A DNA stretch of 46,221 nt, taken from UHGV virus genome UHGV-0126501, one strand, 5' to 3'. The stretch is from a virus. Under the pieces are notes generated by a model that ran no database searches, was not told the origin of the DNA, and saw only the letters and a list, made by a program, of their open reading frames with translations. Position 1 is the first letter of the stretch. Each line of letters opens with the position of its first letter. The position numbers and the translations under genes were made by a program. This document shows, in pieces, positions 50-46,171 of this stretch.

Positions 50-1180
50 TCAAATGACCAGTTTTTTCCACTCCTTACCACGTGCATCGTTGTAAATATC
101 GGTCATTTTTTGATTCGAATGGCCCAGCAAAATTTGGGTGTCGATCCCTTGCTCCCTGAATAAACGCTCCGACAATGATCGCTGTTCATGGAAAGAGGGT
201 GGGGTACCATTAGCGCACCAGTTGTAATCTACAGAATCCCGCGCTTTTTTAAATGCAACTGTTAACGTTGCTGGCTTAACCATCCCGCCGCGCTTGGCTG
301 TCCCTTTCGCATGATGGTGGTGCAATAGCCACGGACTAAGAACGCAATCGCGACAGGATGACACCACATCATCCAGGGTGAGATTTAATTTATTGCAACG
401 CAGAGCAAGAGGGATGGCAATCCGGGTTCCTGTTTTTTGCTGTTCGACATGAAGATAACCATCCCGGATATCCGAAAATTGCATTTTGCAAATATCTGAA
501 AGGCGCTGGCCTGTCATCAGTGCCAGCAGCATGCCGCGCTGTAAAAAGTAACCATCCTTTTCCGCTGCGTTATAAATCATCATCCACTCATCAAAAGTCA
601 GTCGCTGTCTTGATATCCGCACCTGCGGTTTTTTTGCCGATTCTGCAGGGTTAAAGCCTGGCGGAACATCGCCTGTTTGCTGAGCTTCCCGGAAAACATC
701 GATCAGTACCTTCCTGAAAATTTGTCCCATTCTGTTATGTCCTCTGGCCTTGTACTCTTCCAGCACCGATACCACATCTTTTACGGTTATGGCATCTAAC
801 GGTCTGGTGCCAAAACGTTCATCAAATACCCTGAGAGGGGCCGCTTTTTGTTTCAGCGTGTTGAGTTTGATCTCTCCGTTTTCATATCTTTCCTGTTGAA
901 TTTTTCTGTAATTATTCAGAAAAATGGAAACGGTTGATGAACCGCCGGTATCATTAATAATTTTCTCCTGCAGACTGAGCATTTGTTCCATTTGCTGCCT
1001 GGCAAGACGGCTGTTCGCTTCTGCTGCAATAGTTTCTGCCAGTTTCTGGTCAATACTGCCGAGACCGTGATTTTTGCCTGTTATGGGATGCCTGTAACGC
1101 CAGTAAACTTTGTTATTTCTTTTGTCAAAATACGGAGATAATCCCGGAACATCAGTTTTATATTTTCGCGGGCGCGCCAT
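50..1180 (-). CDS. int: Phage integrase, tyrosine recombinase
   Basis: 376-aa ORF at the prophage end, transcribed toward the att arm; C-terminal region has the R..H..R..Y catalytic-domain look of lambda-family integrases; overlaps xis. Confidence 0.85.
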   Translation of the reverse strand: MARPRKYKTDVPGLSPYFDKRNNKVYWRYRHPITGKNHGLGSIDQKLAETIAAEANSRLARQQMEQMLSLQEKIINDTGGSSTVSIFLNNYRKIQQERYENGEIKLNTLKQKAAPLRVFDERFGTRPLDAITVKDVVSVLEEYKARGHNRMGQIFRKVLIDVFREAQQTGDVPPGFNPAESAKKPQVRISRQRLTFDEWMMIYNAAEKDGYFLQRGMLLALMTGQRLSDICKMQFSDIRDGYLHVEQQKTGTRIAIPLALRCNKLNLTLDDVVSSCRDCVLSPWLLHHHHAKGTAKRGGMVKPATLTVAFKKARDSVDYNWCANGTPPSFHEQRSLSERLFREQGIDTQILLGHSNQKMTDIYNDARGKEWKKLVI

Positions 1181-8687: not shown

Positions 8688-9797
8688 ATGCGTGATTACG
8701 CAAAAGTTTCTCCGCGATTCTGGCTGGGAGAAACGGGGAGAGAACTTAGAAAGGCGGGTGCAGAAGCGCAAGTTGTTGCTTTTTACCTGATGACATCCCC
8801 TCACGCAAATATGCTGGGTTTGTATTACCTGCCAGTTTTATACCTTGCTCATGAAACCGGGCTTGGTCTGGAAGGGGCTTCAAAGGGGCTTAAAAGGGCT
8901 GTTGAAGCTGGTTTTTGTAGCTATGACCATGATGCCGAGATGGTCTGGGTCCATGAAATGGCAGCCTGGCAGGTTGGGGAAACGTTGAAGCCTGGCGATA
9001 ACCGTTGTGCAGGTGTCAGGAATGAGTATGCATCATTACCTGAAAACGCTTTTCTGTCAGCGTTTTACGACAGATATAAAACGGATTTCCATCTGGATGT
9101 GAGGCGGAATAATAGCCGAAATTCGGTAAGGGGCTTCGAAGGGGCTTTTAAGGGGCTTCGAAGCCAAGAACAGGAGCAGGAGAAAGAACAGGAACAGGAC
9201 AAAAACACTATGGTTCATGGCGAAAAAAACACCATGAACCAGGCAGGGGATGTTCAGACCGTAAATTCTGGTCAGCCAGCAGGCACGACACCGGAAGCCG
9301 ATTCGGCGTATGCGCTGAAAGCCGATTCGGGCGCTGTGCAGCAGGCGATGACCGCAGGGTCGGAGCAATCACACCAACTGCAGCAGCCTGAAGCCGATTC
9401 CGCCATTCAGCGGGAAGCCGATCGGGTAGTCCCGGAAAACACCGGGCGGCCTGTGGGACGAGTGGATTATCCGGATGCGTTCGAACAGGTCTGGCGGGAA
9501 TACCCGTTGCGTGCCGGGGCAAACCCGAAGAAATCCGCATTCAGTGCCTGGAAGGCCAGATTGCGCGAGGGGGTGCCACCAGAGGCCATGCTGGATGGTG
9601 TGATGCGTTACGCGAGATACCTAGCGGCGACCGGGAAAGCGGGAACGGAATTTGTTCAGCGAGCGACGACGTTTTTTGGACCGGACCGGAATTTTGAAAA
9701 CCCCTGGTTGCTCCCGGTAAGCGGCACGAACAACCAGCGTTGTGTGAATCATATTTCTGAACCGGACACCGAAATTCCGCCTGGGTTCAGGGGGTGA
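8688..9797 (+). CDS. Putative replication initiation protein (O-like / DUF1376-type N-terminus, DnaT-like C-terminus)
   Basis: ATG at 8688 with GAGGT SD; position of a replication gene in a lambdoid early right operon; contains two clusters of 11-bp-spaced direct repeats and a QE-rich linker. Confidence 0.55.
   Translation: MRDYAKVSPRFWLGETGRELRKAGAEAQVVAFYLMTSPHANMLGLYYLPVLYLAHETGLGLEGASKGLKRAVEAGFCSYDHDAEMVWVHEMAAWQVGETLKPGDNRCAGVRNEYASLPENAFLSAFYDRYKTDFHLDVRRNNSRNSVRGFEGAFKGLRSQEQEQEKEQEQDKNTMVHGEKNTMNQAGDVQTVNSGQPAGTTPEADSAYALKADSGAVQQAMTAGSEQSHQLQQPEADSAIQREADRVVPENTGRPVGRVDYPDAFEQVWREYPLRAGANPKKSAFSAWKARLREGVPPEAMLDGVMRYARYLAATGKAGTEFVQRATTFFGPDRNFENPWLLPVSGTNNQRCVNHISEPDTEIPPGFRG
8870..8900. 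repeat. Iteron-like direct repeats, cluster 1 (AAGGGGCTT x3 at 11-bp spacing)
   Basis: AAGGGGCTT at 8872 and 8883, AAGGGCT at 8894. Confidence 0.5.
9128..9165. repeat. Iteron-like direct repeats, cluster 2 (AAGGGGCTT x3 at 11-bp spacing), followed by an A-rich stretch; candidate ori
   Basis: AAGGGGCTT at 9128, 9139 and 9150, inside the replication gene as for lambda ori within O. Confidence 0.5.
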
Positions 9798-16005: not shown

Positions 16006-16017
16006 GGCTTCGCTTAA
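15988..16017. other. 13-bp perfect stem hairpin spanning the convergent stop codons of Q (+) and the C5-methyltransferase (-)
   Basis: TTAAGCGAAGCCC-AATA-GGGCTTCGCTTAA; no U-tract on either side. Confidence 0.6.
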
Positions 16018-17054
16018 ATCGACGAAATTATAGCTCTCCCAAGTGCTTCAGCCATCTTGGGAGGAACCGCATTCCCAATTTGTTTTGCTTTTGATACTAA
16101 CGACCCCGTGAAGGAATAGTCTAATGGGAATGTCTGTAATAACGCAGCCTCTCTAACTGAAATTGCTCGGTCTTGTTCAGGATGCCCGAAACGTCCATTC
16201 GAATAGCTTATACACCTAGTCGTTAAGCCACTTGCAGGTTTGTCCCATGAAAGACGTCCATAAACATCCGTATGCCCTTTATATTTCTTATGGCATTCTA
16301 AGATCAAATTCTCAGGCCAAGACTCCCTTCCTTTTCCCTCTGGGGTAGCTTTTATGCGTTTAATATTCAGTTCGGACAGCCTGGCTGCTGTGTGATCAAT
16401 TATCTCTTTATGAGTTTCACCTGCAGCTATAGGTGGTAAATTACCGATCCAATCTCTTACCGTTGCAAACGGAGTTTCTACTCCGTCATGAGTTTTGGGT
16501 GGGAGCTTAATATGTGTGTGTCTTGACGCCAGCAAAACAAAACGTTCACGGGTCTGAGGAACTCCGAACCACAAAGCAGGAACAACACCAAAATCAACGT
16601 TGTAGTTATGATGAGTTAAAACTTCAAGAAATTTCTGGAAGTTTCCGTTATTGATATCGACGTTTTGGATTCCAGGCACATTTTCTATCAGTACGAAATC
16701 AGGAACATAATAAGATACAAAACGTGCAAATTCAGTCAGGAGATCTTTCCTGGGATCGTCGTTGTTCCGTGTTTTGTTCTGTTTTGAGAATGGTTGACAT
16801 GGGGCACATCCGCAAAACAAAGTCAGGGCTTTACATTTTTTTGAGTCAGAAATTAGATGATTAATATCTTCAACATGTGTATCTTTGATATCACCATTGA
16901 TGAAATGTGCTAATGGATTGTTTTTCTTGAAGGTATTAGACGAGTCTAGATCAATATCTAAACCAAATATAATTTCCATACCCACTGCTTTTAGGCCTGC
17001 ACTAGTGCCTCCGCAGCCGGAAAAAAAATCGTATACATGTATCTTTTTAGTCAT
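16014..17054 (-). CDS. DNA (cytosine-5)-methyltransferase
   Basis: Motif I FSGCGG, motif IV PCQPFS, motif VI ENV, motif VIII QTRERF, motif X GNAVPP. Confidence 0.9.
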   Translation of the reverse strand: MTKKIHVYDFFSGCGGTSAGLKAVGMEIIFGLDIDLDSSNTFKKNNPLAHFINGDIKDTHVEDINHLISDSKKCKALTLFCGCAPCQPFSKQNKTRNNDDPRKDLLTEFARFVSYYVPDFVLIENVPGIQNVDINNGNFQKFLEVLTHHNYNVDFGVVPALWFGVPQTRERFVLLASRHTHIKLPPKTHDGVETPFATVRDWIGNLPPIAAGETHKEIIDHTAARLSELNIKRIKATPEGKGRESWPENLILECHKKYKGHTDVYGRLSWDKPASGLTTRCISYSNGRFGHPEQDRAISVREAALLQTFPLDYSFTGSLVSKAKQIGNAVPPKMAEALGRAIISSI

Positions 17055-17057
17055 TAT

Positions 17058-18848
17058 CTACCTCACTCTTGGTCTGATAGTATCATTATCTAAAAAGATT
17101 TGCAGCAACTCTCGAGTTTTCGTTAACATTTCATGATCATTCGGTATTTTATTTAGCATTCTAATTTGAGTTTCAAAGATATCATCACTAGTAACATTAT
17201 CCAGCCCAGTATCGAGTTTACAAATTTCCTTAGTAATTTGTTTAGCATCTTGAACGTCTTTCGAAATTAATTCTTTATATTCCTTGTAGTCTCCATAGAC
17301 ATTTTCAATAAGAAATATTTCAGGCGTGTAAACAGGAAGGAAACCGATGCTATCGTGAATGAAATCGATGAAATCTCTTTGCATTTTATATTTTTGGCTA
17401 TGATTAGCTACACCTTTAGAGCCATCGCAGTTAAATTTGATGTCTTGGTTTGTTATTGATTTTATAATATCCTGAAGATTAGGGTTCTCGTTTTCTGGTA
17501 TTGAGTCAGAGGTTGGGTAGTTATCAACAATAGATTGATCACCATCTAGCAAAAAAATAACGTTTTTAACGTTAGCAACACATAATGGGGCTGCTAAAGT
17601 TTGAAAAATACTTCCGGCCCCTCCAGGAAAGTGCTTGACTTCAAAGGAGTTTAATAATGCTTCACCACCTGCTTTAAGAGCTTTCTCTACAAACCTCTTA
17701 GCCAAGCGATCTTCTACAATAACTGTTCTCTTCTCGATTCGCTCACCAAGGATGAAGAAAGATTCTTCTGGGCTGACATTTTGCAGAACATCAACTTTTC
17801 CTAATTTATCATTCAGGCAAAATAATTTTATAGCATTTTTCGGTAAGTCTTTTACTATTGTTGATGAATGAGTGGATATCACAATTTGATGTTTCTTTTT
17901 AATTGCTTGTTCAGATAAAAATTCCATTAATTGGCATTGTGCTGAAGGGTGAAGCGATACTTCAGGTTCGTCTAAAAGAATTAGTGATGCGTTTGGACTG
18001 TCTATTAGTTTATGTACTAAAATAGATACGGCGAATTCTCCACTACCAGCGAATGCTTCAGAATATTTTAAGTTTTCTGACTGAAGTATAATTGTTGGAG
18101 CTTTGTCATTCGTAAATAAGCAATGCTCGATAAGTCTAATACTAGTGTATTTTCGCCCTAAAATTTTGCTGATTGCCTCAACTTTATTTTTGCCTAATAA
18201 AGTATTGACAAAGAGTTTATCTTTTTTACCTTTGTGGGGTTGATATTTTTTTAGATCGTTATCGATGATTTCTCTTAGCATTTGACTGCGTTTTCTAAGA
18301 TAATCCTTCTTGGGATATGTATGAAAGTCAGAATGATAAAAGAATTTATCGAATGCACTTATCGTTGCTCTGAAATCTAAATAGATTACATTTTTATCAA
18401 TGGCTTTCCATCGTGTTTTTAATTGGTTATCCGAAAGTATTGTATCAGGCATAGTAGCCATATTATCTGATTTTAGAGGCCTAGAAGGTTCCCAGTAGTC
18501 AGGATCATTTTCTTTAGAAATTCGGGTTTTGATTACTTCAACAATAGAATCAGTAGCTTTATCATAATATCCATAAATGAATCTTGAGCGACCACCGTCT
18601 TTAATTTCATCCACATCTGTAGAAAACCATAGGCTACCTAATGAATAGTTGTTTGGTGAGCCGAAAAGGGCTCTTAAAACTGAGCTTTTATTCGTTCCAT
18701 TTTGACCGACCAACGCCGTGACTGGATAATCAAAATCGATTTTGCTTCCTTCGGCGAGGTTTTTGAAAAATGGGAAACGAATATGTCTAATAAATGGCTC
18801 AATCTGAGCGGATGCCATAATTTGTTTTAGTTTTAAATGGTTGTTCAT
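17058..18848 (-). CDS. OLD-family-like ABC ATPase with C-terminal TOPRIM-like acidic motifs (putative ATP-dependent nuclease)
   Basis: P-loop GQNGTNKSS, Walker B/D-loop LILLDEPEVSLHP, C-terminal VIVEDR and LLDGDQS motifs; 3 nt upstream of the C5-MTase on the same strand; AT-rich. Confidence 0.65.
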   Translation of the reverse strand: MNNHLKLKQIMASAQIEPFIRHIRFPFFKNLAEGSKIDFDYPVTALVGQNGTNKSSVLRALFGSPNNYSLGSLWFSTDVDEIKDGGRSRFIYGYYDKATDSIVEVIKTRISKENDPDYWEPSRPLKSDNMATMPDTILSDNQLKTRWKAIDKNVIYLDFRATISAFDKFFYHSDFHTYPKKDYLRKRSQMLREIIDNDLKKYQPHKGKKDKLFVNTLLGKNKVEAISKILGRKYTSIRLIEHCLFTNDKAPTIILQSENLKYSEAFAGSGEFAVSILVHKLIDSPNASLILLDEPEVSLHPSAQCQLMEFLSEQAIKKKHQIVISTHSSTIVKDLPKNAIKLFCLNDKLGKVDVLQNVSPEESFFILGERIEKRTVIVEDRLAKRFVEKALKAGGEALLNSFEVKHFPGGAGSIFQTLAAPLCVANVKNVIFLLDGDQSIVDNYPTSDSIPENENPNLQDIIKSITNQDIKFNCDGSKGVANHSQKYKMQRDFIDFIHDSIGFLPVYTPEIFLIENVYGDYKEYKELISKDVQDAKQITKEICKLDTGLDNVTSDDIFETQIRMLNKIPNDHEMLTKTRELLQIFLDNDTIRPRVR

Positions 18849-19450: not shown

Positions 19451-20497
19451 ATGGCCAATACTGTAAAAATATCCAGTTGTGAGTTAATCAACGCTGATTG
19501 CCTGGAATTTATCCAGACCTTACCGGAAAACTCTGTCGATCTGATAGTCACAGACCCGCCATACTTTAAAGTGAAGCCTGAGGGCTGGGATAACCAGTGG
19601 AAGGGCGACGATGATTACCTGAAATGGCTGGATCAGTGTCTGGCGCAATTCTGGCGGGTACTGAAACCTGCCGGAAGTCTCTACCTGTTCTGTGGTCATC
19701 GCCTGGCATCTGATATCGAAATCATGATGCGTGAGCGCTTTAATGTGCTGAACCACATTATCTGGGCGAAGCCGTCCGGACGCTGGAACGGATGCAACAA
19801 GGAAAGCCTGCGGGCGTATTTCCCGGCAACAGAACGCATTCTGTTTGCAGAACATTATCAGGGGCCATACCAGCCCAAAAATGACGGCTATGCGGCAAAG
19901 GGGCGCGAGCTTAAGCAGCACGTGATGGCTCCGCTGATTTCTTACTTTCGTGATGCGCGTGAATCACTGGGGATAACGTCAAAACAGATAGCTGAAGCCA
20001 CCGGAAAGAAAAACATGGCTTCGCACTGGTTTGGTACCAGTCAGTGGCAGTTACCGAATGAGGCCGATTACAGTAAACTACAGGCGCTGTTTGCACGTGT
20101 GGCGGCAGAAAAACACCAGCGCGGTGAACTGGAGCAGCCACACCACCAGCTGGTCAGCACATACAGCGAACTGAACCGGCAATATGCCAGCCTGCTGGAG
20201 GAATACAAATCACTGCGGCGTTATTTTTCCGTATCGGCTGTCGTTCCTTATACGGATGTCTGGACGCACAAGCCCGTGCAGTATTATCCGGGCAAACATC
20301 CCTGTGAAAAACCGGCGGATATGTTGCGTCAGATAATTACTGCCAGCAGTCGTCCTGGCGATTTGGTCGCAGATTTTTTTATGGGGTCGGGGTCGACAAT
20401 AAAAGCGGCACTGTCGCTGGGACGCAGGGCGATTGGCGTGGAACTGGAAGAGGAACGTTTTAATCAGACGGTCAGAGAAATAACGAAAGATTTTTAA
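19451..20497 (+). CDS. DNA methyltransferase, beta-class amino-MTase (N6-adenine or N4-cytosine)
   Basis: Motif IV DPPY (LIVTDPPYF) precedes C-terminal motif I FxGxG (DFFMGSGST). Confidence 0.85.
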   Translation: MANTVKISSCELINADCLEFIQTLPENSVDLIVTDPPYFKVKPEGWDNQWKGDDDYLKWLDQCLAQFWRVLKPAGSLYLFCGHRLASDIEIMMRERFNVLNHIIWAKPSGRWNGCNKESLRAYFPATERILFAEHYQGPYQPKNDGYAAKGRELKQHVMAPLISYFRDARESLGITSKQIAEATGKKNMASHWFGTSQWQLPNEADYSKLQALFARVAAEKHQRGELEQPHHQLVSTYSELNRQYASLLEEYKSLRRYFSVSAVVPYTDVWTHKPVQYYPGKHPCEKPADMLRQIITASSRPGDLVADFFMGSGSTIKAALSLGRRAIGVELEEERFNQTVREITKDF

Positions 20498-35117: not shown

Positions 35118-35440
35118 CGCGGGAGATGCAGTTTGTGATGCAGCTTGCCCGTGAGTTCCGGCGGGCAGACTGGCGGCGGATGTTATCAGAAATGTCAGCG
35201 TCAGAACTGGGCGAATGGGGGGATTTCTTCCGGAAGCAGAGTTTCGGGGATATCTGGCTGGATGCACAGATTTCCACACTGAAGTCGCTGATGGTTCAGA
35301 TGGTGTCCGGTGAACGTATTCCGGCGGATGATTTCAGTCTGGTTACGGATGACAGGGTGATCCCTGAACGCACGGATGAAGAGCTGATGCATCTGGGGGA
35401 AGGTATATCGGGAGGAATGAGATTTGGACCAGATTGCTGA
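35087..35440 (+). CDS. T: T portion of the tail assembly chaperone G-T fusion (expressed by programmed -1 frameshift)
   Basis: -1 frame open from 35087 and overlapping the G 3' end; candidate slip region CCGGAAAAG (35103-35111); conserved G/GT arrangement before the tape measure gene. Confidence 0.6.
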   Translation, partial: TGSPDTGKVLTREMQFVMQLAREFRRADWRRMLSEMSASELGEWGDFFRKQSFGDIWLDAQISTLKSLMVQMVSGERIPADDFSLVTDDRVIPERTDEELMHLGEGISGGMRFGPDC

Positions 35441-38400
35441 CCTTGTCATTGATTTAAGCATTGATACCGCCGATTTTAAAGAGCAGCTTCCGCGTGTAAA
35501 AAATCTGCTGAATGGTACAGCAAGGGAGGCGGAGCGGGCCGAAGCCCGTATGAAACGGTTTGAGGAAAGTCAGAAACAGGCTGCCAGCGCGACGGTGATA
35601 CAGACTCAGGCCGTGGTGAAGCATGCGCAGGGGCATGTTTCGCTGGCGGAAGATGTGGAAAGGGCGCGCCTGCGGATGGAGGCCCTGAGTCGTCAGATGC
35701 GGGAGGAGCAGGTTCAGGCGGTTGCGCTGGCTGCGGCGCAGGATAAGATGGCAGCCGCATTTTATCGTCAGATCGACAGCGTAAAACAGGCCAGTGCGGG
35801 GCTGCAGGAGTTACAGCGTATTCAGCAGCAGATCCGACAGGCCAGAAACAGTGGCGGGATTGCTCAGCAGGATTATCTGGCCCTGATTTCTGAGGTGACA
35901 GCGAAAACCCGCGTTCTGACACAGGCAGAGGAAACGGCCACCCGCCAGAAAACCGCATTTATTCGTCAGCTGAAAGAACAGACAAGTCGCCAGAAAATGA
36001 CCACGACGGAACTGCTTCGGGCAAAGGCGGCACAACTTGGGTGCAGCAGTGCCGCGGAGGTGTACATCCGTAAAATGGAGAAAGCCGGAAACACCACACA
36101 TTCGCTGGGACTGAAAAGTGCGGCAGCCCGTCGGGAGCTGGGGGTCATGATTGGTGAACTGGCGCGTGGTAATTTCGGTGCGCTTCGTGGCTCCGGGATC
36201 ACCCTGGCTAACCGTGCCGGCTGGATTGATAAATTAATGACTCCGAAAGGCCTGGCGGTGGGGGGAGTTATCGGAGGGATCACTGCTGCGGTTATTGGTC
36301 TGGGTAAAGCCTGGATGGAGGGGCAGGAAGAAGGCGAAGCCTTTAACCGGCAGCTTGAGCTCACCGGACACTATGCCGGTGTGACAGCCGGGCAGTTGTG
36401 GGCGCTCAGTAAAAATCTTTCCGGTAATGGCATCACGCAACATGCCATGGCGGGGTCACTGGCGCAGGTAGTGGGGAGCGGTGCATTTCACGGTAACGAT
36501 ATTGGTATGGTGGCGAAAGCTGCCGCACAGATGGAACGCTCGGTAGGGCAGTCTGTCAGTGACACCATCAGTCAGTTTAAACGGCTGAAGGATGATTCGG
36601 TCAGTGCTGCGAAGGCGCTGGATGATGAACTGCATTTTCTGACAGCCACCCAGCTTGAACAGATCCGTGTGCTCGGAGAGCAGGGGCGCACCAGTGACGC
36701 CGCCCGGATAGCCATGTCTGCACTGGCAGAGGAAACCGGTAAACGTACGTCGGATATTGATAATAACCTCAATGCGCTGGGCAGTACGCTGCAAACCTTG
36801 TCTGACTGGTGGAAGCAGTTCTGGGATGCGGCCATGAACATTGGTCGGGAAGATTCCCTTGATGCGCAGATTGCGTCGCTGCAGGAAAAAATTCAGCGGG
36901 CGAAGAAATTTCCGTGGACTAAGGCGTCCACCACGGTGGAATACGATCAGCAACAACTGGATGCGCTGCAAGAGCGAAAGCGCCAGCAGGATTTGCAGGA
37001 TGCAAAAGAGCAGGCTGAGCGAAATTATCAGGAGCAGCAGAAACGCCGGAATGCTGAAAATGCCGCGCTGAACCGGATGAACGAAACGGAAGCAGCACGA
37101 CATCAGCGTGAAATTGCGCGTATTAATGCCATGCAGTACGCCGATCAGGCGGTCAGGGACGCAGCGATACAGCGTGAAAATGAACGTTACGAAAAAGCCA
37201 TTAAGAAAAAAACGCCTGTCACCCGTAATGATGAGGCCACCCGGTTATTACTGCAGTACAGCCAGCAACAGGCGCAGGTGGAGGGACAGATTGCCGCCGC
37301 CAGACAGTCAGCGGGCATGGCTACTGAAAGGATGACAGAAGCGCATAAACAGCTTCTGGCCCTTCAGCAGCGTATCAGCGATTTAGCCGGTAAAAAACTG
37401 ACAGCAGATGAAAAAAGTGTACTGGCTCACAAGGATGAGCTGATTCAGGCACTGACGCTGCTGGATGCAAAACAGCAGGAGCTGCAGAAGCAGACGGCGC
37501 TGAATGATTTGAAGAAAAAATCCATTCAGCTTGCCAGCCAGCTGGCGGAAGAGGAGCGGGCTCTGCGTCAGCAACATGACCTGGATATCGCCACGACAGG
37601 GATGGGGGATAAACAGCGTCAGCGATACCAGGCACAGTTCAGTCTGCAACAAAAATATCAGCAGCAGCGGGAACAGCTGGAGCGTGACAGTAAGCAGAAA
37701 GGAACATATGGCACAGATGAATACCGGAATGCTGAGCAGACGCTGACAGACAGTCTTAACCGGCAACTGAACGAAAACAGACGTTACTGGCAGGAACAGG
37801 AACTGATGCAGGCAGACTGGAAAAACGGTGCCATGCGGGCTTTTCAGAATTTCACAGAGAGTGCGGATAACGCGGCAGGTACGGCTGAGCAGATGTTTAC
37901 AGCGGCATTTAACAGCGCAGGTAATGCACTGGCGACGTTCTGTACCACCGGAAAACTGAACTTCAAATCTTTTACCGCCTCGCTCCTTTCTGATCTGGCA
38001 AAAATCATGTCGCAAATGGCCATGATGCAGGCGGTGAAGGGGATTGGTTCGGCGTTTGGCTGGGGGAGTGCAGCAGCTGCCAGCGTGACGCCAAATGCGG
38101 ATGGCGGTGTTTATCAGTCTGCTGATTTGAGTCGCTACAGTGGCACGGTGGTTAACCGTCCGACGTTTTTTGCTTTTGCAAAAGGCGCGGGTGTGATGGG
38201 AGAAGCGGGGCCTGAAGCCATTCTGCCACTGCGTCGTGGTGCTGATGGCAAGCTGGGAGTTGTGGCGGATATTGGTGGTTCAGGTATGGTGATGTTTGCC
38301 CCGCAGTACAACATCGAGATCAATAACGATGGTACGAACGGGCAGATAGGTCCGGCTGCCCTGAAGGTGGTTTATGACCTCGGGAAAAAAGCAGCAGCGG

Positions 38401-38456
38401 ACTTTATGCAACAGCAGTCCCGTGATGGTGGTCAGTTAAGCGGAGCGTATCGGTAA
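35424..38456 (+). CDS. H: Tail tape measure protein H
   Basis: 1010 aa; TTG start with GGGAGGA SD; C-terminal ...INNDGTNGQIGPAALK.VYD... and internal ...KS.LAHKDE... match recalled lambda gpH. Confidence 0.93.
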   Translation: MDQIADLVIDLSIDTADFKEQLPRVKNLLNGTAREAERAEARMKRFEESQKQAASATVIQTQAVVKHAQGHVSLAEDVERARLRMEALSRQMREEQVQAVALAAAQDKMAAAFYRQIDSVKQASAGLQELQRIQQQIRQARNSGGIAQQDYLALISEVTAKTRVLTQAEETATRQKTAFIRQLKEQTSRQKMTTTELLRAKAAQLGCSSAAEVYIRKMEKAGNTTHSLGLKSAAARRELGVMIGELARGNFGALRGSGITLANRAGWIDKLMTPKGLAVGGVIGGITAAVIGLGKAWMEGQEEGEAFNRQLELTGHYAGVTAGQLWALSKNLSGNGITQHAMAGSLAQVVGSGAFHGNDIGMVAKAAAQMERSVGQSVSDTISQFKRLKDDSVSAAKALDDELHFLTATQLEQIRVLGEQGRTSDAARIAMSALAEETGKRTSDIDNNLNALGSTLQTLSDWWKQFWDAAMNIGREDSLDAQIASLQEKIQRAKKFPWTKASTTVEYDQQQLDALQERKRQQDLQDAKEQAERNYQEQQKRRNAENAALNRMNETEAARHQREIARINAMQYADQAVRDAAIQRENERYEKAIKKKTPVTRNDEATRLLLQYSQQQAQVEGQIAAARQSAGMATERMTEAHKQLLALQQRISDLAGKKLTADEKSVLAHKDELIQALTLLDAKQQELQKQTALNDLKKKSIQLASQLAEEERALRQQHDLDIATTGMGDKQRQRYQAQFSLQQKYQQQREQLERDSKQKGTYGTDEYRNAEQTLTDSLNRQLNENRRYWQEQELMQADWKNGAMRAFQNFTESADNAAGTAEQMFTAAFNSAGNALATFCTTGKLNFKSFTASLLSDLAKIMSQMAMMQAVKGIGSAFGWGSAAAASVTPNADGGVYQSADLSRYSGTVVNRPTFFAFAKGAGVMGEAGPEAILPLRRGADGKLGVVADIGGSGMVMFAPQYNIEINNDGTNGQIGPAALKVVYDLGKKAAADFMQQQSRDGGQLSGAYR

Positions 38457-40846: not shown

Positions 40847-43800
40847 ATGGGTAAAGGCAGCAGTAAGGGGCATACTCCGCGCGAAGCGAAGGACAACCTG
40901 AAGTCCACGCAGTTGCTGAGTGTGATCGATGCCATCAGCGAAGGGCCGGTTGAAGGTCCGGTGGATGGATTAAAAAGCGTGCTGCTGAACAGTACGCCGG
41001 TGCTGGACACTGAGGGGAATACCAACATATCCGGTGTCACGGTGGTGTTCCGGGCCGGTGAGCAGGAGCAGACACCGCCGGAGGGATTTGAATCCTCCGG
41101 ATCCGAGACGGTGCTGGGTACGGAAGTGAAATACGACACGCCGATCACCCGGACCATCACGTCGGCAAACATTGACCGACTGCGTTTTACCTTCGGCGTG
41201 CAGGCACTGGTGGAAACCACCTCAAAGGGGGACCGGAATCCGTCGGAAGTCCGCCTGCTGGTTCAGATCCAGCGTAATGGTGGCTGGGTGACGGAAAAAG
41301 ACATCACCATTAAGGGCAAAACCACCTCGCAGTATCTGGCCTCGGTGGTGGTGGGTAACCTGCCGCCGCGCCCGTTCAATATACGGATGCGCAGGATGAC
41401 GCCGGACAGCACCACAGACCAGCTGCAGAACAAAACGCTCTGGTCGTCATACACCGAAATCATCGATGTGAAACAGTGCTACCCGAACACGGCACTGGTC
41501 GGTGTGCAGGTGGACTCGGAGCAGTTCGGCAGCCAGCAGGTGAGCCGTAATTATCATCTGCGCGGGCGTATTCTGCAGGTGCCGTCGAACTATAACCCGC
41601 AGACACGGCAATACAGCGGTATCTGGGACGGAACGTTCAGGCCAGCGTACAGCGACAACATGGCCTGGTGTCTGTGGGATATGCTGACCCATCCGCGCTA
41701 CGGCATGGGGAAACGTCTTGGTGCGGCGGATGTGGACAAATGGGCGCTGTATGTCATCGGCCAGCATTGCGATCAGTCGGTGCCGGACGGTTTTGGCGGC
41801 ACGGAGCCGCGCATCACCTGTAATGCGTACCTGACCACACAGCGCAAGGCGTGGGATGTGCTCAGTGATTTCTGCTCTGCGATGCGCTGTATGCCGGTAT
41901 GGAACGGGCAGACGCTGACGTTCGTGCAGGACCGACCGTCGGATAAGGTGTGGACCTATAACCGCAGTAATGTGGTGATGCCGGATGATGGTGCGCCGTT
42001 CCGCTACAGCTTCAGCGCCCTGAAGGACCGCCATAATGCCGTTGAGGTGAACTGGATTGACCCGAATAACGGCTGGGAGACGGCGACAGAGCTTGTGGAG
42101 GACACGCAGGCCATTGCCCGTTACGGTCGTAACGTCACGAAGATGGATGCTTTTGGCTGTACCAGCCGGGGGCAGGCACACCGCGCCGGGCTGTGGCTGA
42201 TTAAAACAGAACTGCTGGAAACGCAGACCGTGGACTTCAGCGTGGGTGCCGAAGGGCTTCGCCATGTACCGGGCGATGTCATTGAAATCTGCGATGATGA
42301 CTATGCCGGTATCCGCACCGGCGGGCGCGTGCTGGCGGTAAACAGCCAGACCCGGACGCTGACGCTCGACCGTGAAATCACGCTGCCATCTTCCGGCACC
42401 ACGCTGATAAGCCTGGTTGACGGGCAGGGGAGTCCGGTCAGCGTGGAGGTTCAGTCCGTCACCGACGGCGTGAAGGTGAAAGTGAGCCGTGTTCCTGACG
42501 GCGTTGCAGAATACAGCGTATGGGGACTGAAGCTGCCGACGTTGCGCCAGCGCCTGTTCCGCTGCGTGAGTATCCGTGAGAACGATGACGGCACGTATGC
42601 CATCACTGCCGTGCAGCATGTACCGGAAAAAGAGGCCATCGTGGATAACGGGGCGCACTTTGACGGCGATTTGAGCGGCACGGTGAATGGTGTCACGCCG
42701 CCAGCGGTACAGCACCTGACAGCCGAAGTCTCCGCAGACAGCGGGGAATATCAGGTGCTGGCGCGCTGGGACACACCGAAGGTGGTGAAGGGGGTGAGCT
42801 TTATGCTTCGCCTGACCGTGACAGCGGACGATGGCAGTGAGCGGCTGGTCAGCACAGCCCGGACGACGGAAACCACATACCGCTTCAGGCAGCTGGCGCT
42901 GGGAAACTACAGGCTGACAGTCCGGGCGGTAAATGCGTGGGGACAGCAGGGCGATCCGGCGTCGGTATTGTTCCGGATTGCCGCACCGGCGACGCCGTCG
43001 CGGATTGAGCTGACGCCGGGCTATTTTCAGATAACCGCCACGCCGCATCTTGCAGTTTACGATCCGACGGTACAGTTTGAGTTCTGGTTCTCGGAAACGC
43101 GGATTACCGATATCAGGCAGGTTGAAACCACAGCCCGCTACCTTGGCACGGGGCTGTACTGGATAGCCGCCAGTATCAATATCAAACCGGGCCATGATTA
43201 TTACTTTTATATCCGCAGTGTGAACACCGTTGGCAAATCGGCATTCGTGGAGGCCGTCGGTCGGGCGAGCGATGATGCGGAAGGTTACCTGGATTTTTTC
43301 AAAGGCAAGATAACCGAATCCCATCTCGGCAAGGAGCTGCTGGAAAAAGTCGAGCTGACGGAGGATAACGCCAGCAGACTGGAGGAGTTTTCGAAAGAGT
43401 GGAAGGACGCCAGTGATAAGTGGAATGCCATGTGGGGCGTCAAAATTGAGCAGACCAAAGACGGCAAACATTATGTCGCGGGTATTGGCCTCAGCATGGA
43501 GGACACGGAGGAAGGCAAACTGAGCCAGTTTCTGGTTGCCGCTAACCGTATCGCGTTTATTGATCCGTCTAATGGCAACACAAGACCAATGTTTGTTGGT
43601 CAGGGCGATCAGATATTCATGAACGACGTGTTCCTGAAACGCCTGACGGCTCCGACCATTACCAGCGGCGGTAATCCTCCGGCATTTTCCCTGACACCGG
43701 ACGGGCGGCTGACGGCGAAAAATGCCGATATCAGCGGTAACGTGAATGCGAACTCCGGGACGCTCAACAACGTCACGATTAACGAGAACTGTCGGGTTCT

Positions 43801-44242
43801 GGGAAAATTGTCCGCCAACCAGATTGAAGGCGATCTCGTTAAAACAGTGGGCAAAGCTTTCCCCCGGGACTCCCGTGCACCGGAACGGTGGCCATCAGGG
43901 ACCATCACCGTCAGGGTTTATGACGATCAGCCGTTTGACCGGCAGATTGTTATTCCGGCGGTGGCATTCAGTGGCGCTAAACACAGGGGAGAGAGTAATG
44001 ATTTTTACTCCTCATGCCGTCTGATAGTGCGGAAAAACGGCGTTGCAATTTATGACCTTACCGCGCAGGGTAATACGCGGATTTACAGTGGCGTTATTGA
44101 TATGCCGGCTGGTCACGGTCACATGACGCTGGAGTTTTCGGTGTCAGCATGGTACATAAATGACTACTATCCCACAGCAACTATCAGCGATTTGCTGGTT
44201 GTGGTGATGAAGAAAGCCACTGCAGGCATCACGATTAGCTGA
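40847..44242 (+). CDS. J: Host specificity / central tail fibre protein J
   Basis: 1131 aa; N-terminal about 950 aa closely colinear with recalled lambda gpJ; the C-terminal about 150 aa diverges. Confidence 0.96.
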
Positions 44243-44260
44243 ATTTTATAACCCATATAC

Positions 44261-44286
44261 GGGCGCCAGAAATGGCGCCTTTTTTA
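44261..44286 (+). terminator. Rho-independent terminator after J
   Basis: GGCGCC-AGAAAT-GGCGCC + T6-7. Confidence 0.8.
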
Positions 44287-44309
44287 TTGCAGAAAAGCGA
44301 GAGGTAATT

Positions 44310-44909
44310 ATGCGTAAATTATGTGCTGTTATTTTGTCCGCAGCAGTCTGGCAGGTCGCCGCTGCTACGCCAGCGAGTGCAGCAGAACATCAGTCCACGC
44401 TGAGCGCGGGGTATCTCCATGCCTCGACGAACGTTCCCGGCAGCGATGCTCTGAACGGGATTAACGTGAAATACCGTTATGAGTTTACGGACATGCTGGG
44501 TGTTGTGACGTCATTCAGTTATGCCAATGCCAAAGATGAGCAAAAAACGCATTACAGCGATACCCGCTGGCATGAGGATTCCGTTCGTAACCGCGGGTTC
44601 AGCGTAATGGCGGGGCCGTCTGTGCGCGTGAATGAATGGTTCAGCGCGTATGCGATGGCGGGTGTGGCTTACAGCCGTGTTTCGACTTTCTCCGGGGATT
44701 ATCTGCAGGTGACCGACAATACGGGGAAAACGCATGATGTGCTGACCGGAAGTGATGACGGTCGCCACAGCAACACGTCTCTGGCGTGGGGGGCTGGCGT
44801 GCAGTTTAACCCGACCGAATCCGTGGCCATTGATATTGCTTATGAAGGCTCCGGCAGTGGTGACTGGCGCACTGACGGTTTCATCGTGGGTGTCGGTTAT
44901 AAATTCTGA
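44310..44909 (+). CDS. lom: Lom-like outer membrane beta-barrel protein (Ail/Lom/PagC/OmpX family)
   Basis: Signal peptide (MRKLCAVILSAAVWQVAAA); alternating beta-strand pattern; C-terminal ...GVGYKF; position after J as for lambda lom. Confidence 0.85.
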   Translation: MRKLCAVILSAAVWQVAAATPASAAEHQSTLSAGYLHASTNVPGSDALNGINVKYRYEFTDMLGVVTSFSYANAKDEQKTHYSDTRWHEDSVRNRGFSVMAGPSVRVNEWFSAYAMAGVAYSRVSTFSGDYLQVTDNTGKTHDVLTGSDDGRHSNTSLAWGAGVQFNPTESVAIDIAYEGSGSGDWRTDGFIVGVGYKF

Positions 44910-44971: not shown

Positions 44972-46171
44972 ATGTCTGTTCTGATTTCCGGTGTGCTGAA
45001 GGATGGCACAGGAAAACCTGTTCAGGGGTGTACGATCGTTCTGAAGGCAAAAAGAACGACCGATACCGTGATAGTGAATACCCTTGCCTCAGAAAATCCG
45101 GATGAAGCCGGGCGTTACAGCATGAATGTTGAGCCGGGGCGGTATGCCGTTTCGCTTTTTATTGAGGGGTATCCACCGTCATATGCCGGTGACATTACTG
45201 TGTATGCGGATTCGCCGCCGGGCACGCTGAATTATTTCCTGGGAACGGTAAGTGAAGATGATTTGCGGCCAGATGTGCTTAAGCGTTTTGAAGAAATAGC
45301 GTCTGAAATTAATCGTCTGGCGGAAGAAGTAAGAAAAAAACAGCAACAGGTCAGTGCTGATACTGAAAAAGTAAGCAATGCAGCCAGTAAAGTACAGCAG
45401 GCTGAGAGAAGCGCTTCAGAGCATGCGGAGTCCGCCAGAAACAGCGCCATATCTTCTGCGACCAGTGAAAGGGATGCGGCATTGCATGCGAAGAATGCAC
45501 AAAAATCTGCGCAAGACGCGGAAAGGAATGCGCAGCAAACCGGGCAACATCTGCAGGCTGCTAAAACTGCAAGCGAAGAGGCAAAGGAATATGCACGACA
45601 GGCCGGGGCATCAAAAGATACAGCCGGGGAGCATGCAGAGAAAGCAAAAAAATATGCAGAAGAAATCAAGTCTCAGGGCGAAAAAGCCAATATATCGGCC
45701 GATAAAAAAAACATACTGGTGCGACTGGGCGATGGTCTGTTTGTGAATGGCACCCACCCACTGATCCCCAAGATGGGGGTGCACAATTATACAACCACAC
45801 TGAATAATTTCCGGAGTCTGCCAGACGGAACCCGCGTATATTCACTTTCTGTTGGCGTCAGCAATCCGTTGAATACGGGCGTAATTGGCGGATATGGTAT
45901 AGCGATTGCTCCCATAATTACCCCTGGTTATCTTTATCTTGATGAGCAAAAGAAATGCATACCGGCGCAGTATCTGATGGACTCGGTTACAGCCACAGCC
46001 AGTGAAATAAAAATAGCGCTGAAGGTTGTGCTGACAGGAAAACCACAGTATGCAGTAGATGTGTCGGATCTGGAAACACGGGAGGAGGGGGATGGCAGCG
46101 GCAATATTGGTTGCAAACTTTCCATCCGCATACTGACCGGAACAACATTACGACAAAACGGAATAAGCTGA
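44972..46171 (+). CDS. stf: Side tail fibre-like protein (Stf N-terminal domain homolog) with central coiled-coil/Ala-Lys-rich region
   Basis: MSVLISGVLKDGTGKPVQGCTIVLKAKRTTDTVIVNTLASENPDEAGRYSMNVEPGRYAV... parallels the recalled lambda Stf N-terminus. Confidence 0.8.
   Translation: MSVLISGVLKDGTGKPVQGCTIVLKAKRTTDTVIVNTLASENPDEAGRYSMNVEPGRYAVSLFIEGYPPSYAGDITVYADSPPGTLNYFLGTVSEDDLRPDVLKRFEEIASEINRLAEEVRKKQQQVSADTEKVSNAASKVQQAERSASEHAESARNSAISSATSERDAALHAKNAQKSAQDAERNAQQTGQHLQAAKTASEEAKEYARQAGASKDTAGEHAEKAKKYAEEIKSQGEKANISADKKNILVRLGDGLFVNGTHPLIPKMGVHNYTTTLNNFRSLPDGTRVYSLSVGVSNPLNTGVIGGYGIAIAPIITPGYLYLDEQKKCIPAQYLMDSVTATASEIKIALKVVLTGKPQYAVDVSDLETREEGDGSGNIGCKLSIRILTGTTLRQNGIS

Follow-up and report, generated by a model that had tools for sequence, protein, structure and literature searches.

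The tip of the bacteriophage lambda gpJ protein inserts four loops into a trimeric porin (PMC11101478), and gpJ structures are available for its closed form (PDB 8xck) and its LamB-bound form (8xcj). Maddamsetti et al. 2018 (PMC6646904) described residues 960-1132 of J as a 'specificity region' that recombines as a module of its own. They reported four hotspots of variation and indels, at lambda J residues 1012, 1048-1049, 1077-1078 and 1107, of which lambda needs positions 1012 and 1107 to acquire OmpF use in the laboratory. The receptors of homologous gpJ tips differ: lambda and phage 21 (phi21) use LamB, and phage 434 and the gpJ variants A8 and 1A2 use OmpC (PMC11101478, PMC12502783, PMC11336670, PMC11338833). 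The tips of phage 434 and of the long-tailed EHEC phage phi330, which also uses OmpC, are 35-40% identical to each other and to that of lambda (PMC12502783). In phage 21, whose native receptor is LamB, a single J mutation confers the use of OmpC (PMC11336670).

The tested tips most relevant here come from Brödel et al., who fused the C-termini of J proteins from natural coliphages to lambda J; the resulting chimeras A8 and 1A2 use OmpC and not LamB (PMC11338833). When OmpC was supplied from a plasmid to MG1655 delta-lamB delta-ompC, wild-type lambda particles gave no delivery, while 1A2 particles delivered with the OmpC of EDL933 and failed with that of K-12 (PMC11338833). Across 23 OmpC variants, 1A2 yielded more than 75% GFP-positive cells on 20 and failed on G1, G2 and G40, and a later preprint used it to target O157 strains via OmpC. 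Structures of A8 gpJ have been deposited in the closed form (9wca) and in the open form bound to OmpC G17 of EDL933 (9wcb). In our comparison, the last 179 residues of A8 are those of the natural phage 2H10, and the A8/2H10 tip shares 81% identity with that of phage 21. As a LamB user and an OmpC user stand this close, percent identity does not reveal which receptor a tip uses.

The window analyzed here, a 46,221-nt stretch of viral DNA (UHGV virus genome UHGV-0126501), is a mosaic lambdoid E. coli prophage. Its J gene, encoding the tail tip or central tail fibre protein, is an intact open reading frame of 1131 aa on the + strand (40847..44242), ending at the position given in a preliminary description of the sequence. 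The encoded protein contains the complete lambda-gpJ set of Pfam domains in canonical order (FNIII-A_GpJ, Phage-tail_3, Ig_J, Ig_J_second, Phage_Tail_Tip and Ig_GpJ_C), and in BLASTP it is colinear with lambda gpJ (NC_001416, 1132 aa) at 89% identity over its full length, with a single one-residue gap. The likeness is greatest in the body (40847..43792, +), comprising the hub domains, FNIII, the helical shaft and most of the beta-prism fibre, where 947 of the first 981 residues (96.5%) are those of lambda gpJ. These values bear out the earlier statement that J is closely colinear with lambda gpJ over most of its length. Two overlapping open reading frames, at 43609..43908 (-) and 43746..44024 (+), were taken as by-products of the long J frame.

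Nucleotide similarity to lambda, which amounts to 92% over the last 791 nt of the body, ends at position 43792 (J nt ~2946, aa ~982), and megablast matches to many lambda-like phages end at J nt 2946 or ~3020. Amino-acid identity to lambda falls with a sharp onset to about 44% (43-44%) in the last ~150-154 residues. This drop is a sharp mosaic boundary, far beyond chance and without gradual decay. The exchanged allele of the specificity region (aa ~982-1131) occupies 43793..44242 (+) and belongs to the VT1-Sakai/PPompW/2G7b/1A2 class; the divergent start formerly placed at 43700 was thus some 93 nt too early, and the length of about 150 residues attributed to the divergent part was right. With a body nearest lambda, a tip nearest VT1-Sakai and a boundary at aa ~982, the J tip is an ordinary instance of the well-documented modular specificity region. 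Recombination inside J at about aa 982 (43792/43793) would have exchanged the tip module along with the region of lom and stf that follows it.

J is followed by a terminator-like hairpin with a T-run (44261..44290, +), at the same place as an annotated terminator in phages 21 and 434. The next gene, lom (44310..44909, +), encodes an Ail/Lom outer-membrane protein (PF06316, E=1.9e-120) that is 44% identical to lambda Lom. The side tail fibre gene (44972..46171, +; 399 aa; PF08400) is 62% identical to lambda orf-401 over aa 1-133 only, the remainder being unrelated to lambda. Since both lom and the fibre gene have diverged, the non-lambda segment extends past J, and the mosaic junction in J opens a longer host-interaction module. 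Just past the right end of the window, reading by eye shows an apparent ompW 3' end, as in the 'PPompW' prophages.

The preliminary description regarded the last 150 or so residues as unrelated to lambda, and this part of the claim falls. Compared with the lambda tip alone, the last 154 residues align at 44% identity with one gap (BLASTP, E=2e-42), and a sequence search of the PDB matches the tip to the solved lambda gpJ chains at E~1e-48. The Ig-like receptor-binding domain proper (aa 1001-1131; 43847..44239, +) covers all of PF12421 (Ig_GpJ_C, the gpJ C-terminal receptor-binding domain; profile positions 1-135 of 135, E=2.8e-39, 134.7 bits against a cutoff of 26.2). An AlphaFold2 monomer model of aa 952-1131, based on a 16-sequence alignment cleaned of frameshifted fragments, is a beta-sandwich with a mean pLDDT of 78.8 and values of 82-97 across most of the Ig-like domain. 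Its best PDB matches in Foldseek are the closed and OmpC-bound A8 gpJ and the closed and LamB-bound lambda gpJ, each with a probability of 1.00 and TM scores of 0.69-0.74. In the multiple alignment, the tip classes share the motifs DDxPFDRQ, KNG and DMPAG. An unrelated domain of another fold, taken from elsewhere, might be suspected from the low identity visible by eye, but the colinear BLASTP alignment, the full-length profile match, the Foldseek result and the conserved motifs already refute it. The last ~150 residues represent a homologous allele of the gpJ receptor-binding module, consisting of the beta-prism fibre end and the Ig-like domain.

To define tip classes, the last 154 residues were searched by tblastn against 50,697 phage records, followed by a multiple alignment of reference phages. 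J tips sort into discrete classes. The window tip is 84-90% identical to those of VT1-Sakai, the PPompW prophages, vB_EcoS-640R1, 2G7b, Stx2a_WGPS2, JLK-2012 and PhiR46_1, reaching 89% with VT1-Sakai and 2G7b without indels. Identity is ~61-62% with phage 21 and its relatives, 55-60% with Stx1a phages and 2H10, ~43% with lambda and ~40-42% with phage 434. The window tip thus belongs to the VT1-Sakai/1A2 class, being free of indels over aa 978-1131 and having the same L1 loop. This class is extremely common in E. coli: of 5,426 complete genomes, 3,788 contain matches to a 543-nt query segment at 80-95% identity, and there are often several copies per genome. The PhiR phages reportedly trace to Brenes & Laub 2025. 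A literature search found no receptor data for natural phages of the class (the PhiR series, 2G7b and long-tailed Stx phages).

The receptor evidence for the class comes from gpJ 1A2, whose DNA was machine-read from a supplement PDF and carries indel errors. Despite these errors, 141 of 154 VT1-Sakai tip residues, including all three patches that distinguish the window from this class, were recovered as exact matches of at least six residues in the 1A2 translation, leaving 13 of 154 unverified. The same procedure recovered 100 of 154 residues for the window, none of them inside the patches, and 6 of 154 for lambda. 1A2 thus carries a VT1-Sakai-type tip. Since the same tip class mediates OmpC-dependent delivery in 1A2, the predicted receptor of the window's phage is probably OmpC and not LamB. 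The earlier proposal of a receptor different from lambda's is supported as a prediction by this relative, 89% identical and OmpC-dependent, although the premise of an unrelated C-terminus does not hold. Alignment with the LamB-binding domain of lambda in a profile search had been put forward as the finding that would speak against a different receptor. Such an alignment exists, with PF12421 over its full length and with Foldseek at a probability of 1.00, but as a test of the receptor it was mis-specified, given that gpJ tips of common descent differ in the receptor they use.

The tip could still use LamB, as lambda and wild-type phi21 do, with its divergence reflecting drift or adaptation to LamB variants. 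Users of the two porins are interleaved among the known tips, the phi21 tip being 61% identical to that of the window and 81% identical to that of the OmpC-binding A8/2H10. We nevertheless consider LamB use improbable: 1A2, which is far closer to the window tip than any other tested tip and shares its scaffold and L1, depends on OmpC when lamB is deleted. The window tip also departs from the LamB-binding lambda-type allele, with only 43-44% identity and differences in all four loop regions.

Compared with VT1-Sakai and 1A2, the tip carries 17 amino-acid differences, all within three patches (aa 1047-1053, 1066-1078 and 1103-1112). Patch 1 (43985..44005, +) coincides with the predicted loop L2 (1047-1052 in the model, hotspot 1048-1049) and reads RGESNDF where 1A2 has EKEHTDI, through five nonsynonymous changes. 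Patch 2 (44042..44080, +) is a beta-hairpin with the predicted turn L3 at 1075-1076, beside hotspot 1077-1078; here 1A2 has AEIYNRTALDNTL, and seven codons differ nonsynonymously. Patch 3 (44153..44182, +), where 1A2 has LVNNWYPTAS, contains five nonsynonymous changes and corresponds to the predicted loop L4 (1104-1111 in the model), equivalent to lambda hotspot 1107. The remaining predicted bottom loop, L1 (aa 1004-1017; 43856..43897, +), is a loop in the model and is identical to that of 1A2 and VT1-Sakai. It corresponds to hotspot 1012, the fourth hotspot, at which the allelic classes differ by indels, and in the multiple alignment the between-class indels sit at hotspot positions. The three patches are also the most variable positions across the VT1-Sakai class, and other class members, such as P0021 and P0022, have yet other patch sequences on the same scaffold. 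By comparison, the intervening loops DDQPF, NG and PAGHG are conserved across all tip classes.

The distribution of these changes is far from random. A codon comparison with VT1-Sakai, limited to the 3' part of J because Sakai-type J is longer and an ungapped comparison upstream of J nt ~2700 is meaningless, gave 17 nonsynonymous differences in the 30 patch codons, and ~10 synonymous and no nonsynonymous differences in the other ~124. In permutation tests the 17 substitutions are clustered (mean nearest-neighbour distance 1.4 codons, p<1e-5) and lie on average 3.5 residues from the nearest published hotspot, against 10.6 expected (p<1e-5). Purely synonymous change outside the patches indicates purifying selection on the domain. 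This pattern and the intact 1131-aa frame make it very unlikely that the prophage is defective, with J in decay and a variant tip that currently serves no function. Some observations do speak for decay. Frameshifts or truncations affect many of the database relatives, and in VT1-Sakai itself the annotation shows J split by a mutation. The side tail fibre of the window has only 399 aa, and gene calling gave no fibre assembly gene in the interval up to the host DNA.

How the patches are placed with respect to the receptor was approached through the model. As neither PMC11101478 nor PMC12617516 states in its text which residues make up lambda L1-L4, the loop orientation was deduced from the published hotspots and from strand alternation, starting at the N-terminus next to the fibre. 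On that basis and by analogy with lambda, loops 1004-1017, 1047-1052, 1075-1076 and 1104-1115 probably lie at the same distal end of the domain. The tip, presumably a homotrimer as in the lambda and A8 structures, would then insert its four 'bottom' loops into a trimeric outer-membrane porin, as lambda's does, and porin binding would trigger fibre rearrangement and tail opening. The 17 substitutions specific to the window, located in three of the four loop regions of an otherwise unchanged scaffold, would most likely retune which OmpC variants, and hence which host strains, are recognized.

Differences from 1A2 that concentrate in the likely contact loops also weigh against OmpC, as specificity could have moved beyond this porin. 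The three-loop substitutions might have shifted the tip to another outer-membrane protein, such as OmpF or a different porin, given that lambda and phi21 can acquire OmpF or OmpC use through a handful of substitutions at the equivalent positions (1012, 1107 and their neighbours) and that the 17 changes fall at exactly such positions. However, the surface loops of OmpC are highly polymorphic and both 1A2 and A8 discriminate between OmpC variants, which makes variant tuning the simpler explanation; L1 and the whole scaffold are also unchanged from 1A2. We regard such a shift as unlikely. A broader possibility, still doubtful, is that the three-loop variant provides a recognition spectrum lacking in characterized tips, either on OmpC variants refractory to 1A2 (e.g. 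the K-12 type G1, G2 or G40) or on a porin that is neither OmpC nor LamB. If so, nature would offer here a case of retargeting through loops alone on a fixed scaffold, and the tip might be a useful new part for engineered lambda delivery vectors. We favor the reading, at a probability of roughly 0.62, that the tip is a functional module acquired by exchange, with OmpC as its receptor and loops tuned to particular OmpC variants.

In contrast to its class, the window's own sub-allele is rare. A single record, a 93.7-kb contig of the ENA metagenome assembly ERZ1314738, encodes the identical J protein, and two partial proteins from E. coli isolates (EFH6728693.1 and MBN6379236.1) share the identical tip sub-allele. 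The exact allele is absent among the 5,426 complete E. coli genomes, where the best full-length match of the 543-nt segment is 94.5%, and an exact 30-nt pattern from patch 2 found no match in the IMG/VR viral contigs. These results carry little weight for basic biology: earlier work has documented both the exchange of the J specificity region as a module and its diversification at hotspots (PMC6646904), and a receptor has been assigned by experiment to the allelic class, which is in use in engineered particles (PMC11338833). Their practical value is modest, in that a rare natural sub-allele with changes confined to three loop regions offers a ready-made test of how these loops determine OmpC-variant, and thus strain, range.

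Among described systems, the window tip most resembles the gpJ 1A2/VT1-Sakai type (PPompW, 2G7b, Stx2a_WGPS2), with 89% identity and no indels over the last 154 residues, and an identical scaffold and L1. In both, the tip forms the end of a lambda-type J, with lom and stf downstream. It differs from 1A2 by the 17 substitutions in the L2-L4 patches, and the variant-dependent use of OmpC established for 1A2 is predicted for the window. With lambda gpJ it shares the Pfam family, Ig-like fold, position and scaffold motifs, and presumably the four-loop porin mechanism; from the LamB-binding lambda protein, to which it is only ~44% identical, it differs in all four loop regions and by one indel near aa 1102. 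A8 gpJ (2H10-type), the tip structurally shown bound to OmpC, is the best PDB match both by sequence (217.7 bits) and by Foldseek E-value. It is, however, only 55% identical over the tip (60% over the 180-residue model), with a shorter L1 and an insertion of 5-6 residues in L2, and it recognizes K-12 OmpC, on which 1A2 fails. Phages 21 and 434 likewise carry homologous modular tips on lambda-like J proteins, from which the window tip is set apart by its sequence: phi21 (61% identical) uses LamB natively and OmpC and OmpF after mutation, and 434 (40%) uses OmpC.

The integrase end of the window (50..1180, minus strand) matches intE of the prophages designated PPompW, and just past its right end, at 8720..8835 of L008, the sequence that extends beyond this end, lies what was judged by eye to be the 3′ end of ompW, in host DNA. 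Given the intE match and this apparent ompW 3′ end, the window reads as a PPompW-type prophage, and it appears to be one residing in an E. coli chromosome and captured in a metagenome assembly. The DUF892 gene comes after the apparent ompW end, in host DNA beyond the prophage.

VT1-Sakai is the reference prophage for the tip class to which the window's tail tip protein J belongs. Its record (L003 493..3965) splits J into two overlapping CDSs with the annotation 'truncated by a mutation', indicating that the reference prophage of the class is itself J-defective; its tip sequence is intact despite this defect. Within the class, the GHGH motif of the window (J residues 1090-1093; 44114..44125) is variable, with GSGV, GRGH and GYGG among the other forms, and is the same in 1A2, the engineered lambda gpJ chimera carrying a VT1-Sakai-type tip. 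The motif falls outside the four published hotspots of lambda J (PMC6646904), and the loop bearing it has a predicted position at the domain's fibre-proximal end.

A C-5 cytosine DNA methylase (PF00145, 346 aa) and an adjoining AAA_15/AAA_21 ATPase (596 aa) occupy 16014..18848 on the minus strand, opposite to the late-region genes on either side, and are followed by an N6/N4 DNA methylase (19451..20497, plus strand). A moron is one possible reading of these methylase/ATPase genes, and a cassette for anti-phage defence is another.

The side tail fibre ORF (44972..46171, plus strand) encodes only 399 aa, comprising an N-terminus that resembles lambda's (62% identity over 133 aa), a middle part rich in Ala/Glu/Lys, and a C-terminal region of ~150 aa without a Pfam match. 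Gene calling gave nothing between this ORF and the DUF892 gene, ~570 nt downstream, and a fibre assembly gene is therefore absent there; the fibre is possibly truncated or of an unusual kind.

The tape measure protein (35424..38456, plus strand) has 1010 aa, whereas lambda gpH has 853 aa. Since dependence on the inner-membrane ManYZ channel is reported to correlate with tape-measure clades in lambda-like temperate phages (PMC13190303), the differences between the window phage and lambda may extend to the injection step.
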